NCBI GenBank assembly: GCA_943356395.1
Contig: CALRFC010000001.1
Span: 1 to 36,665 of the forward strand
Length of the DNA: 36,665 nt
Origin: Candidatus Nomurabacteria bacterium
Lineage (GTDB): Bacteria; Patescibacteriota; Minisyncoccia; Phycocordibacterales; UBA9973
Direction: 5' to 3'
Shown: positions 29,933 to 36,140 of the stretch, in pieces
Numbering within the stretch: the stretch's first letter is position 1
Layout of the letters: the number at the start of each line of letters is the position of its first letter
Program-made: the position numbers and the translations under genes
Notes under the pieces: generated by a model
Seen by the model: the letters and a program-made list of their open reading frames with translations, nothing else
Told to the model about the DNA's origin: nothing
Database searches by the model: none

Positions 29933-29951
29933 CTGTCCGAACGGATTCATC

Positions 29952-30038
29952 CGGGCGGGCAAAAAGCCCGCCCGACTGAACGACAATAATACTTCAGTCC
30001 CCTCCAGAACGACTCTGTCGGGCTGGGTTCGGGCGGGC
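29952..30038. repeat. CCCGCCCGA-word hairpins
   Basis: CGGGCGGGC-AAAAA-GCCCGCCCG (29952-29974). A second GGGTTCGGGCGGGC lies at about 30024-30038. Related to the copies at 32047-32094 and 33807-33846. Confidence 0.55.
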
Positions 30039-30117
30039 AGACAGCCAGTTTTTTTTATGTTCTATGATTCATGTTTTATGTTACGCGTTCCATATTATGC
30101 TCTATGCGTTGCCATGC

Positions 30118-30145
30118 TTGCCAGAATTTTCTTTTCATGTATACT
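30118..30145 (+). promoter_or_regulatory. Strong sigma-70-type promoter upstream of the GIY-YIG/rplJL region
   Basis: TTGCCA (30118-30123), 16 nt spacer, TATACT (30140-30145). Confidence 0.55.
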
Positions 30146-30151
30146 CTCATT

Positions 30152-30330
30152 GTTCACCGTAGACAGCGGGCAGGGGAATATCCCCAGAGGTCCCGCCGAG
30201 GAAAGGAATGAAAGACAATTGACAATTGACTTTTGACAATTGACCGAAATGCAAACGCATTTTAAGTCAAATGTCACTTGTTAAATGTTAAATGTTTGCG
30301 TTCGCTCTACGGCCGAAAGGTCGATTTTTT
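30152..30330 (+). promoter_or_regulatory. Structured leader or short transcript ending in a weak terminator (candidate rplJL leader/attenuator)
   Basis: GCGGG...GGGGA-ATA-TCCCC...CCCGC nested stems (30167-30197). A 7-bp tandem array. CGGCC-GAAA-GGTCG followed by ATTTTTT (30310-30330). Confidence 0.35.
30214..30245. repeat. 7-bp tandem repeat GACAATT x4.5, which generates reiterated TTGACA hexamers
   Basis: GACAATT GACAATT GACTTTT GACAATT GACC. Confidence 0.85.
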
Positions 30331-30333
30331 ATT

Positions 30334-30680
30334 GGAAAATAATGAGTGAAGCGAATATATTTTCCATAACCCTGTTAAATAATTTTAAATCATGTCGCGG
30401 TATCATTACACATACGTATTGCGATCAAAGAAAGATAGCGATTTGTACGTTGGGTGTACCGCTGATTTAAAATTACGATTTGAGCAACATCAGAAAGGTC
30501 AAGTTGAGTCAACAAAGAATCGACGACCGCTTGAGTTGATATACTTCGAATCATGCTTGTCTAAAAGCGATGCACTACATCGTGAAAAATATTTTAAGAC
30601 ATATCATGGTAAGCAGTTTATCTACAAGAGGCTCAAATCGTATTTAACAGGGTGAGATTTTCCGCTTCGCTACAAATCTC
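30334..30680. mobile_element. GIY-YIG ORF cassette bounded by nested inverted repeats, ending at the rplJ start codon
   Basis: ACCCTGTTAAATA (30369-30381) is the perfect reverse complement of TATTTAACAGGGT (30641-30653). GGAAAAT (30334-40) pairs with ATTTTCC (30657-63). Flanking local hairpins have loops carrying GTGAAGCGAA and CCGCTTCGCT. Confidence 0.45.
30392..30655 (+). CDS. GIY-YIG domain nuclease-family protein (stand-alone, 87 aa)
   Basis: YHYTYVLRSKKDSDLYVGCTADLKLRFEQHQKG...REKYFKTYHGKQF. Confidence 0.9.
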   Translation: MSRYHYTYVLRSKKDSDLYVGCTADLKLRFEQHQKGQVESTKNRRPLELIYFESCLSKSDALHREKYFKTYHGKQFIYKRLKSYLTG

Positions 30681-31169
30681 ATGATTACAAAAGAAAAGAA
30701 AACTCAATTGATAAAAGATATCGAGGCGATGCTCAAAAGCGCCGCATCAATCGTCTTCGTCAAATTCGACAAGCTCACGGTCAAAGACGCGAATGCGCTT
30801 CGCCGAGGGCTCGACAAGGAGAATGTCGCGTACAAGGTTTCCAAGAAAACGCTCCTGAAGCGCGTGCTCGATACGAAAGGATTCGAGGGTTCTCTGCCGG
30901 ACCTGGAAGGCGAGATCGCGATCGCCGCATCTTCCGACCCGCTCTCCGCGGCGCGCGAAGTGTATGCGTTCCAATCCGCGCACAAGGACAACATCTCGAT
31001 CGTCGGCGGCGTTTTCGACGGGAAGTATCAGGACAAGGCGCAGATGATTTCCATCGCGACGATTCCTCCGCTCCAAACGCTCCGCGGCATGTTCGTGAAT
31101 ATTATAAACTCACCCATTCAGCGATTGGTCATCGGACTCAATGCTGTTGCTGGGAAGAAAAGTGCGTAA
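30681..31169 (+). CDS. rplJ: 50S ribosomal protein L10
   Basis: 162 aa with KEKKTQLIKDIEAMLKSAASIVFVKFDKLTVKDANALRR. Followed by rplL. Confidence 0.93.
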   Translation: MITKEKKTQLIKDIEAMLKSAASIVFVKFDKLTVKDANALRRGLDKENVAYKVSKKTLLKRVLDTKGFEGSLPDLEGEIAIAASSDPLSAAREVYAFQSAHKDNISIVGGVFDGKYQDKAQMISIATIPPLQTLRGMFVNIINSPIQRLVIGLNAVAGKKSA

Positions 31170-31190
31170 ATTATAAATAATAAACTAGGC

Positions 31191-31251
31191 TTTAGGCACT
31201 AGGCTCTAGCAAAAATGCTAATGCCTAACGCCTAGTAGCCTAGTGCCTAAA
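31191..31251. repeat. TAGGC-word hairpin between rplJ and rplL
   Basis: TTTAGGCACTAGGC (31191-31204) is the perfect reverse complement of GCCTAGTGCCTAAA (31238-31251). Confidence 0.7.
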
Positions 31252-31256
31252 ATATT

Positions 31257-31649
31257 ATGGAAGAAAATAAAAATGTGGAAGTTCCTGCGAAGTTCAAGGA
31301 CATCGTTTCGAAGATCGAAGAAATGTCCGTGCTTGATCTTCATGAGCTCGTGAAAGTGTTTGAAGAAAAATTCGGCGTTTCGGCCGCAGCCGTTGCCGGT
31401 CCGGCCGCCGCAGCCGCGGGCCCTGCCGCTGAAGAAAAAGACAGCTACACGGTCGTCCTTTCTGCCGCAGGCGAACAAAAAATCGCCGTGATGAAGGCAG
31501 TCAAGGAAGCTCTCGGACTCGGACTCAAGGAAGCAAAAGATCTCGTCGATGGCGCGCCGGCAACCCTCAAAGAGGGAATGAAGAAAGCCGAAGCGGAAGA
31601 ACTCAAGAAAAAGATAGAGGAAGCGGGAGGGAAAGTTGAGCTTAAATAG
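31257..31649 (+). CDS. rplL: 50S ribosomal protein L7/L12
   Basis: 130 aa with an Ala/Pro hinge ([19 protein letters not shown]) and C-terminal domain [27 protein letters not shown]...[14 protein letters not shown]. Confidence 0.95.
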
Positions 31650-35020: not shown

Positions 35021-35407
35021 AGTTAGAAAAACATAGACAGCGCATTTCTTTGTTGCTTCGCTCGTTTGCTCCCGCAATGTACAGTCGTACATTTTGGTCG
35101 CAAGCCTCGCTCGCGCCTCGAACTGCACCTGCCTCTGTTTTTCTAAGAATACGACTGCACGACTGACCATTGATAACCAAATACGCTCCACCTTTGTTTA
35201 GACATGGGGTCTTTTCGGAGGATGGAGTGGCAGGAAAAATCGTCGTGCTTCACACGAATGACTAATACTCAATGACTAATATCTAAGTAGATGCGGAATT
35301 CCGCATTTCATTAGAAATTAGAAATTAGAACTTAGAAATTTCGCACGGAGTGCGACAAACGTATGTTGCAATCAGTAGTAGGCAGCGGTGTCGAAATGAT
35401 TGTAAAT

Positions 35408-35438
35408 CCCGCGCATCACACAGTGTGTGATGCGCGGG
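35408..35438 (+). repeat. Perfect 14-bp hairpin just 5' of 23S, with the same sequence module as the internal 23S insertions
   Basis: CCCGCGCATCACAC-AGT-GTGTGATGCGCGGG. Confidence 0.8.
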
Positions 35439-35763: not shown

Positions 35764-35837
35764 CTGCGCATCACATTGCATGTGATGCTGATATTTAAAT
35801 ATTTAAATATCAGCATCGCGCGTAGCGTGATGCGCAG
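35764..35837 (+). repeat. 23S insertion block 2 (E. coli ~270-280 region)
   Basis: Closed by CTGCGCATCAC...GTGATGCGCAG. Internal perfect palindrome GATGCTGATATTTAAATATTTAAATATCAGCATC. The 20-mer lies at 35791-35810. Confidence 0.65.
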
Positions 35838-36140
35838 GGTTGTAAGGTGACGATGTAGATTTATCTAGAAGAGTTACAAAATATTTTGTTAGCGGAAGGC
35901 GCTGGAAAGCGCCGCCATAGAGGGTGATGGCCCCGTACGCGAAAATAAAATATCTCTTTGGTCGTCATTCTTGAGTACTTCGAGACACGAATAGCTCGGA
36001 GGAATCCACCGGAACTAACCGGTAAGGCTAAATACATACAAAAACCGATAGTGAACTAGTACCGCGAGGGAAAGGTGAAAAGAACCCCGATAAGGGGAGT
36101 GAAATAGATCTGAAACCATATGCTTACAAAGAGTCGGAGC

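Follow-up and report, generated by a model that had tools for sequence, protein, structure and literature searches.

A 347-nt cassette lying between the ribosomal protein L10 leader and the rplJ gene of a Candidatus Nomurabacteria genome is, in the reading we modestly favor, a small mobile element whose single-domain GIY-YIG nuclease acts on the element's own folded ends. The cassette (30334–30680) is part of a window of 36,665 nt, the whole stretch of DNA analyzed here (GenBank assembly GCA_943356395.1, contig CALRFC010000001.1, positions 1 to 36,665), and extends from the end of the L10 leader (30333) to the rplJ ATG (30681). Its core comprises 285 bp (30369–30653), outside of which lie extended terminal hairpins. 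The source genome, G000, is a candidate phyla radiation (CPR)-type assembly of 630 kb in 58 contigs. A first-pass annotation of the same letters had already described a selfish hairpin cassette in a ribosomal-protein operon, and that core reading holds on every point it had named as able to overturn it: inverted repeats are present and covary at homologous GIY-YIG genes of 83 loci, the position is polymorphic among relatives, and G000 harbors other copies, namely two more GIY-YIG open reading frames (ORFs) and a set of ORF-less hairpins.

The Cassette Is an Insertion between the L10 Leader and rplJ

The rplJ loci of 36 genomes of the same family and order were compared. In ~27 relatives the leader upstream of rplJ contains a promoter, the elements ACCGTAGACAG...CCGAGG, a variable hairpin, and a terminator-like GGCC...GGTCGATTTTTT. 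In these relatives the rplJ ATG follows the T-tract after only 15–30 AT-rich nt, with no cassette, such that the leader is joined almost directly to rplJ. Because relatives show these empty sites, comparison of the loci shows 30334–30680 to be an insertion between the L10 leader attenuator and the rplJ start codon. Among the loci compared, only G000, G019 (same family), and L099 (a Nomurabacteria genome) carry the cassette at this site. The G019 and G000 nucleases are 71% identical and their L10 proteins 58% identical; in G005 the site is empty, though its L10 is as close to that of G000 as the G019 protein is. A further genome, G020, has a 49%-identical nuclease gene near rplJ, located upstream of the promoter. 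An exact-protein look-up of L10 for an insert-free strain returned the identical assembly alone. The cassette has a GC content of 32–36%, compared with 55–62% for rplJ, and no evident promoter of its own.

The Cassette Encodes an Intact Single-Domain GIY-YIG Nuclease

The ORF at 30392–30655, recognized in the first pass as a GIY-YIG nuclease, indeed encodes an 87-aa protein of this type. It matches Pfam PF01541 with an E-value of 6.7e-16 and a score of 58.8 bits (cutoff 22.6) as a single domain spanning residues 4–74. In an alignment of 32 homologues the catalytic residues Y6/Y8, Y19, G21, R29, H33, and E65 are invariant, as is the C terminus, RLKSYLTG. A structure model, which the first-pass annotation had proposed as a check, was obtained with AlphaFold at a predicted local distance difference test score of 91; it adopts a beta-beta-alpha-beta-alpha-alpha topology. 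The aligned residues and the predicted structure together show an intact nuclease. Its nearest folds by Foldseek are UPF0213 BH0048 and the Slx1 nuclease domain. The earlier description of the protein as a homing-endonuclease module is loosely right, but the protein has no DNA-binding domain and is closer to the single-domain nucleases UPF0213, Slx1, and Ssn than to I-TevI.

At least 3,346 homologues of 84–87 aa, 63–77% identical, were found in at least 10 phyla, including many Patescibacteria classes, Desulfobacterota, Bacteroidota, Ignavibacteria, Cloacimonadota, Planctomycetota (Scalindua), Gammaproteobacteria, Bdellovibrionales, Izemoplasmatales, and others. Within the class of the source organism the family is present in 154 of 201 genomes, at up to 12 copies in genomes of 0.6–1 Mb. 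Many copies lie on short contigs, a few carry internal stops, and the same nuclease protein is found with differing flanks. No relative was found in viral contigs, and plasmids yielded only distant YazA-like matches.

Of the two further small GIY-YIG ORFs in G000, one (C2:17683–17928) lies directly before recR and encodes a 46%-identical protein between unrelated arms, ATCCCGTAGTAGAATTTTGACT and AGTCAAAATTTCACTACGGGAT. The other (C35:1388–1630) encodes a 37%-identical protein, is GC-richer, overlaps the end of a pyrE-like gene, and has no evident flanking inverted repeat; it may be a domesticated or decayed copy.

Nested Terminal Repeats Belong to the Element

The first-pass annotation had placed a perfect 13-bp inverted repeat around the nuclease gene, with the right arm overlapping the end of the ORF. 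Both arms, ACCCTGTTAAATA and TATTTAACAGGGT, are found exactly there (Table 1), the right arm spanning codons Y-L-T-G and one further base, the first of the stop codon. The repeat occurs once in the 630-kb genome, and 0 of 200 shuffles had equally good flank pairing. Two mirror-image local hairpins had also been noted; these are mutual inverted copies, and the right one ends the cassette at 30680, the base before the rplJ ATG. The outer pair GGAAAAT (30334–30340)/ATTTTCC (30657–30663) is present as described but weak alone at 7 bp, and it reads better as part of the two local hairpins. The outer hairpins and the 13-mers combine into terminal inverted repeats of ~48 nt. The notion that such repeats arose by chance in AT-rich DNA around a vertically inherited operon gene draws on the AT-richness of the region and the weakness of the 7-bp pair, but it is refuted by the shuffles, by covariation in 83 loci (see next section), and by the empty sites in relatives, and its probability is negligible.

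Outer hairpins of this kind define a subfamily of nine elements: the window copy, L002, L052, L066, L072, L084, L099, L104, and L111. The left loop has the consensus GAG(Y)NNAGCGA and the right loop is its complement; the loops are kept, whereas the stems vary. The nine elements occupy different host sites, typically past a terminator T-tract and directly before an ATG, and in L002, L099, L072, and L104 the right outer hairpin module is immediately 5′ of the host ATG. Because nine elements share the outer hairpins at different sites, the nested repeats are part of the element, not of the rplJ leader. To end exactly at a start codon is a habit of the family.

The Element Folds into a Covarying Three-Way Junction

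To describe the fold we used an alignment (A2) of 83 distinct loci from at least 10 phyla. RNAalifold predicts, unprompted, three contiguous helices. In H1, an arm in the 5′ untranslated region (UTR) pairs with the last codons of the ORF, Y-L-T-G; in H2, the next 5′ UTR segment pairs with codons D-L-K-L; and in H3, codons R-F-E pair with codons L-K-S. In the window copy this fold includes two perfect or near-perfect pairings beyond those first noted, 30380–30392 with 30463–30475 and 30471–30485 with 30631–30645. The inverted ends ACCCnGTTAAATA...TATTTAACnGGGT, or compensated variants of them, are found at the 83 loci. On the sense strand, the covarying three-way junction brings both element ends together.

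The covariation is strong. In the alignment 92.9% of cells are paired, and 217 cells are doubly compensated, compared with 57±6 in shuffles and 29–43 in slid controls; compensatory change affects 20 of 35 pairs, with double compensation in 8 of the 9 H2 pairs. Examples are the series from GTTAAATA/TATTTAAC to GTCAAATA/TATTTGAC and to GTGAAATA/TATTTCAC, and, in H2, ATTTTAAAT/ATTTAAAAT in CPR genomes versus AGCTTGAG/CTCAAGCT in Desulfobacterota. The Arg and Ser codons of H3 covary perfectly (AGA with TCT, n = 56; CGA with TCG, n = 12; mixed, 0). The conserved noncoding left arm and the compensatory changes argue against arm conservation arising from the YLTG codons alone. The second G000 copy adopts the same three-way junction despite its unrelated arms, with the AUG within H2, and in Desulfobacterota a Shine-Dalgarno (SD)-like GAGG is within H2. 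Wobble pairs favor the sense strand (G·U plus U·G, 46, versus A·C plus C·A, 13); folding z-scores of −6.3 for the sense and −7.5 for the antisense strand do not separate the two thermodynamically. Sequence conservation ends at flank positions −3 to −1 (Y-T-Y) and +1 (A), which extend H1.

Two columns of this alignment, 46 and 350 (flank −1 and the second base of the stop codon), alternate in register: T with G in 25 loci, C with A in 24, T with A in 18, and C with G in none. A TGA stop accompanies TTTACCC, and a TAA stop accompanies TTCACCC. The alternation may stem from conservation of a wobble-type pair at the presumed cut site; alternatively, it may mark lineages. Arrangements of the arms also vary. 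At L121:2431–2776 they are swapped: TTTGACGGGGT precedes the ORF and ACCCCGTCAAA follows it, beyond the coding sequence, and the ORF is therefore reversed within the same stem. Two elements lie in tandem in L127, and in L064 and L101 a duplicated or second left arm adjoins the element.

Mini Copies and Insertion Sites Point to Movement

In L031 and its relatives, the nuclease gene sits inside the ORF of a Y1 (IS200-like) transposase, just before the MxNHFH motif. The L031 transposase gene contains, 240 nt beyond the nuclease insertion, a 52-nt ORF-less mini copy (ACCCGGTTAAATAG...TATTTAACTGGGTGA) that is absent from L032 and L035, where the empty site reads GATTC/AAGTC with no duplication. H1-type mini hairpins are also found elsewhere in G000 (e.g., ACCCCGTGAAAT...TATTTCACTGGGGT), one of them nested inside another hairpin. 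The G000 mini hairpins stand beside an outer hairpin whose loop is GAGCGAAGCGAC and immediately precede the start codons of fusA, a clpB-like gene, fpg, rpsT, and serS. Hairpins with the outer-hairpin loop of the window copy occur in at least five other places in G000, and the arms of the second GIY-YIG copy recur in at least five mini copies. Because ORF-less mini copies exist, the ends alone can be mobilized.

Full-length elements interrupt three kinds of gene: 17 of the 83 lie in TIGR02436 four-helix-bundle genes at the NIAEG motif, 2 in Y1 transposase genes (L031 and L057), and 2 in ORF6N genes at AIQVNI. Four-helix-bundle hosts that are only 36–41% identical contain, at the common NIAEG motif, nucleases that are 85% identical; these are therefore independent arrivals at that motif. 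No target-site duplication was seen at the mini copy filled/empty pair (TTC/AAG) or at the host-gene junctions, and the possible TGGA repeat beside the second G000 copy is an isolated case. When the element is removed from the interrupted genes, the frame classes count 9, 9, and ~0, with L053 as an exception and the right junction falling in a variable A-run.

These interrupted genes bear on the idea that the element behaves like an intron or an rRNA intervening sequence (IVS), its terminal stem being processed by RNase III or another host enzyme and the element being cut from the transcript, perhaps with religation, so that host genes stay functional. In the IVSs of 23S rRNA, an S23p/TIGR02436 four-helix-bundle ORF lies in the loop of an RNase III-cut stem. 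The ORF-in-stem-loop topology is the same here, and the IVS ORF family is that of window ORF 1495–1851. Moreover, the halves of interrupted four-helix-bundle genes are open on both sides at 17 loci, the L074 and L128 halves differ by a nonsynonymous divergence (pN) of 0.14–0.20 with synonymous divergence (pS) saturated, and 18 cases regain their frame when the element is removed at (−1,0) or (−1,+1), the third frame class being nearly absent. We nevertheless consider this idea quite improbable. It requires two different excision boundaries, the two insertions in L031 jointly fail to restore the frame, the element is too small to accommodate a group I or II ribozyme core and has no Rfam match, and no splicing endonuclease plus ligase pathway for mRNA is known in bacteria. 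Recent, repeated insertion accounts for the intact halves just as well, the nucleases being 85% and the hosts ~40% identical.

Around insertion sites, the left flank has the approximate consensus A-A-N-R-T-T-(Y)^, and sequences of this AANRTT type are common in Asn-Ile codons and AT-rich leaders of G000. In intergenic copies the downstream gene is co-oriented with the element in 40 cases versus 4. Overall, the element nearly always shares the orientation of a host gene and lies a short way 5′ of it. A host ATG follows the element stop codon immediately in 8 of 83 elements and within 4 nt in another 7; several elements lie exactly at the stop/start junction of operon genes, and upstream ORFs often terminate within the left arm. 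The leaders of G000 are A/T-rich, and GGAG, GAGG, or AGGA occurs within 22 nt upstream of the start in only 23 of 441 long ORFs; G000 therefore initiates translation essentially without SD sites. The 16S 3′ end was not found in the G000 assembly.

Such sites could be read as those of a classical free-standing homing endonuclease gene that cuts double-stranded DNA in empty alleles or paralogues and spreads by double-strand-break repair, with the inverted repeat as a by-product. GIY-YIG is a classical homing-endonuclease fold, and the conserved motifs of multicopy genes in which insertions occur (NIAEG, Y1 before MxNHFH, and ORF6N AIQVNI) offer repair templates. Against this, the protein of 84–87 aa lacks a DNA-binding domain, the many sites in front of unrelated housekeeping genes have nothing in common beyond a short AANRTT-like motif, and mini copies and strong structural covariation are unexpected for a homing-endonuclease gene, making this explanation very improbable.

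A different possibility is that the structure acts in RNA only: an ordinary small nuclease gene would spread horizontally and move by ordinary recombination, its mRNA would fold into the three-way junction to autoregulate or silence translation and to stabilize the transcript, and the inverted repeat would be no transposition end. Among phage homing-endonuclease genes, I-TevI and mobE are known examples in which a hairpin hides the ribosome-binding site. The location of the SD-like GAGG (Desulfobacterota) and the AUG (second G000 copy) in H2, the sense-strand wobble bias of 46 versus 13, and the 40-to-4 co-orientation with host transcription all fit this possibility, and the upstream ORFs that often end in the left arm would permit activation by translating ribosomes. 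Yet mini copies retain H1 alone and still occur at new sites, such as the interior of a gene or of another hairpin; conservation stops exactly at the base of H1, at flank −3 to +1; insertion has recurred at one motif in hosts only ~40% identical; and ordinary recombination does not explain boundaries that are precise to the base. An RNA-only role is thus unlikely. Collectively, the compared loci show that the family moves between unrelated sites and phyla with precise boundaries.

A Proposed Mechanism

By analogy with Ssn nucleases (see next section) and Slx1, the nuclease of our mobile element would recognize the folded single-stranded form of its own ends, consisting of H1 with or without the outer hairpins. 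Cleavage would occur at the base of the terminal stem, likely between flank positions −2 and −1 and just past the stop codon, because conservation and pairing stop there. It may release or copy the element, which would then enter A-A-N-R-T-T-(Y)^A targets without target duplication. Such targets are frequent in AT-rich leaders lacking SD sites, beside the ATG, and in Asn-Ile codons of conserved motifs. In mRNA that starts at the rplJ promoter and continues past the L10 attenuator, the fold would bury the ribosome landing site of the nuclease gene, which would keep nuclease translation low, and would compact the insert such that rplJ expression survives.

Several points weigh against this proposal. 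GIY-YIG nucleases hydrolyze DNA and form no covalent intermediate, and so offer no evident way of rejoining the strands. H2 and H3 are needed only with the ORF, and the placement of GAGG and AUG fits a role at the RNA level at least as well as one at the DNA level. The right junction varies by one A within an A-run, the clean filled/empty pair for a mini copy is a single case (n = 1), and one old insertion may be common to G000 and G019. The best Protein Data Bank sequence matches are UPF0213 proteins. The likeness to Ssn was drawn from the published description, and the Ssn SRM hairpin is absent within 1 kb of the three small G000 GIY-YIG genes, hairpins of a different sequence flanking the window gene.

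Relation to Known Systems

The structure-selective nuclease Slx1 cleaves branched DNA. Its nuclease domain and the UPF0213/YhbQ/YazA proteins are the best sequence and fold matches to the window protein; in contrast to the family studied here, they are encoded by single-copy housekeeping genes for which flanking inverted repeats are unreported.

The closest system overall is the Ssn family (cd10448), single-domain GIY-YIG nucleases of ~94 aa that bind single-stranded DNA (ssDNA) and cut it, but not double-stranded DNA or RNA, beside a directional hairpin repeat (PMC11893778). In Neisseria meningitidis, NTS/SRM hairpin repeats flank the gene for SsnA, an architecture that the authors term insertion sequence-like (Chenal et al. 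2025, PMC11893778). Hairpin-flanked single-domain GIY-YIG nucleases were first recognized in that 2025 work (PMC11893778), and beyond it our literature search found no description of the present family. Both systems pair a single-domain GIY-YIG protein of ~90 aa with inverted hairpin repeats that bracket its gene and with a strand-directional motif, and both have hairpins scattered beside important genes (in the window family fusA, rpsT, serS, fpg, and the clpB-like gene). They differ in that the gene of the window family is enclosed within a long-range hairpin and supplies one hairpin arm from its own last codons, and in the three-way junction that involves the coding sequence. The window family also shows polymorphic insertion, boundaries precise to the base, mini copies within genes, and a preference for start codons, none of which is described for Ssn. 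The published SRM consensus, HGTCWYN(0-2)YYVSBRHN(0-5)WNVSBRGN(0-2)RNCYNB, was also searched for and rejected as a feature of this genome, with 2 matches in G000 versus 2.7 in shuffles. The window element represents a large, barely described family, a variant of the nuclease-hairpin pairing seen in Ssn, with clear mobile-element hallmarks.

Other systems share parts of this architecture. IS200/IS605 and REP/RAYT elements, which move by single-strand "peel and paste," likewise have hairpin ends, no target duplication, insertion 3′ of a short specific sequence able to pair with the other end, a strand-specific fold, and nonautonomous hairpin copies (cf. PATE and REP). However, the window element encodes a hydrolytic GIY-YIG protein and no HUH/Y1 enzyme, its ends pair with each other and are not subterminal hairpins, and Y1 transposase genes are its targets, not its part. 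Membership in IS200/IS605 was rejected, as the sole ORF is the GIY-YIG gene and no Y1 HUH transposase (TnpA) is present. With 23S rRNA IVSs the element shares a small ORF in the loop of a long stem within highly expressed translation genes and a patchy distribution, and the window's second cassette (1416–1876) encodes exactly the IVS protein family; here, in contrast, the host is an mRNA leader and not rRNA, the cargo is a nuclease, and the element is known from sequence alone. The GIY-YIG genes of T4 (Seg/MobE) and I-TevI are also selfish genes between or before conserved genes, with RNA structure that hides the translation start. The window protein is a third of their size and lacks a DNA-binding domain, its element has terminal inverted repeats and mini derivatives, and its family resides in cellular genomes of at least 10 phyla, with none in viral contigs. 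A group I or II intron was rejected as well: there is no Rfam match at the gathering score in the window or at E ≤ 10 within 29950–30750, where the subthreshold L10 leader is the sole match, and only ~25 of the 285 nt of the core are noncoding.

Features of the rplJ Region and Other Repeats of the Window

Table 1. Coordinates of the cassette and of the rplJL features around it
Feature	Position	Strand	Remarks
Promoter-like TTGCCA-16-TATACT of the rplJL operon	30118..30145	+	Read from the letters; relatives have TTGACA/TATACT at the matching place before the leader
Divergent ribosomal protein L10 leader	30139..30339	+	Subthreshold match to Rfam RF00557; motifs kept in ~27 relatives
Terminator-like hairpin and T-tract CGGCCGAAAGGTCGATTTTTTATT closing the L10 leader	30311–30333		
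Left outer hairpin	30334..30365	+	Stem GGAAAATA/TATTTTCC; loop ATGAGTGAAGCGAATA, carrying GTGAAGCGAA
H1 5′ arm ACCCTGTTAAATA	30369..30381	+	Nuclease 5′ UTR; pairs with 30641–30653; covaries in 83 loci
H2 5′ strand ATTTTAAATCA	30382..30392	+	Ends in the A of the ATG; pairs with 30463–30473
Single-domain GIY-YIG nuclease ORF, 87 aa	30392..30655	+	Pfam PF01541
H2 3′ strand	30463..30473	+	Codons A-D-L-K-L
H3 5′ strand CGATTTGAGC	30476..30485	+	Codons R-F-E-Q; pairs with 30631–30640
H3 3′ strand GCTCAAATCG	30631..30640	+	Codons L-K-S
H1 3′ arm TATTTAACAGGGT	30641..30653	+	Codons Y-L-T-G plus first stop base
Right outer hairpin	30654..30680	+	Stem GAGATTT/AAATCTC; loop TCCGCTTCGCTAC, carrying CCGCTTCGCT; abuts the rplJ ATG
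Host gene rplJ (L10)	30681..31169	+	Pfam Ribosomal_L10, 3.2e-18
rplL	31257–31649	+	Pfam Ribosomal_L12, 6.1e-27

Against Rfam RF00557 the L10 leader gives a full-length match with 31.5 bits (E 0.0036), short of the gathering score of 44. It probably represents a divergent member of RF00557, and the Rfam L10_leader model seems not to cover this CPR lineage. A tRNA scan returned zero tRNA genes.

Inside the variable hairpin of the leader (30211–30297), TTGACAATTGAC, with 14 exact copies in the genome, and GTTAAATGTTAAATG, with 5 copies, form an array of short repeats that are dispersed in the intergenic DNA of G000. Upstream, at 30050–30083, the repeat TTTTTTTATGTTCTATGATTCATGTTTTATGTT has ~30 other intergenic matches in G000, with 88–100% identity over 25–34 nt. 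CTAG-rich palindromic spacers, such as ctaggctttaggcactaggc...gcctagtagcctagtgcctaa, are found in the rplJ-rplL gap (31170–31256) and after rpsR (2090–2200), and related repeats (AGCTAACAGCTAAC) occur upstream of rplJ in the relatives L015, L027, and L030.

A second cassette, to which the first-pass annotation had assigned positions 1416–1876, extends from 1414 to 1872 between ssb (945–1415) and rpsR (ATG at ~1891). Its 118-aa ORF (1495–1851) belongs to the TIGR02436 four-helix-bundle, "23S rRNA IVS protein" family (2.2e-32), of which G000 has 11 copies in its 630 kb, and is bracketed by AGTGAAAAGCGAACAG and CTGTTCGCTTTCCGCT, a motif resembling the GIY-YIG outer-hairpin loops. The suggestion that the two cassettes form a common class is borne out in part: they share a related flank motif (GTGAAAAGCGAA and TTCGCTTTCC), but their arms differ, and elsewhere the GIY-YIG element sits inside four-helix-bundle genes and not as a sibling cassette. 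In addition, an inverted repeat, ATCCCGCGCATCAC (35406–35419)/GTGATGCGCAGGGT (35827–35840), encloses the initial ~380 nt of the 23S rRNA gene (Rfam start 35459). It has the AYCCNG...CNGGRT terminal signature of the hairpin elements and may be a processing stem or an inserted element.

Implications

To the picture of Ssn nucleases the family adds boundaries precise to the base, empty sites, mini derivatives, a preferred target, and a fold that covaries strongly, and its paired enzyme and hairpin specificities could serve as ssDNA tools. A bolder reading, possible but one toward which we do not lean, is that it constitutes a new class of autonomous prokaryotic mobile element: a hairpin transposon of ~285 bp whose sole protein, a GIY-YIG nuclease of 84–87 aa, acts on the element's own ends in folded single-stranded form, whose coding sequence serves as the three-way-junction scaffold uniting those ends, and which enters at start codons and selfish-gene motifs and perhaps exits precisely. 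If true, this would be the smallest known type of autonomous transposon and would give Ssn nucleases an ancestral, selfish function.

For the annotation of CPR/Patescibacteria genomes, the family explains recurrent small ORFs and palindromes in ribosomal-protein and translation-factor operons, as well as split four-helix-bundle and transposase genes. Its protein-coding sequence is under dual constraint, as synonymous codons covary with the 5′ UTR and with each other, and this dual constraint may explain the unusual 70–77% identity that the family maintains across phyla.

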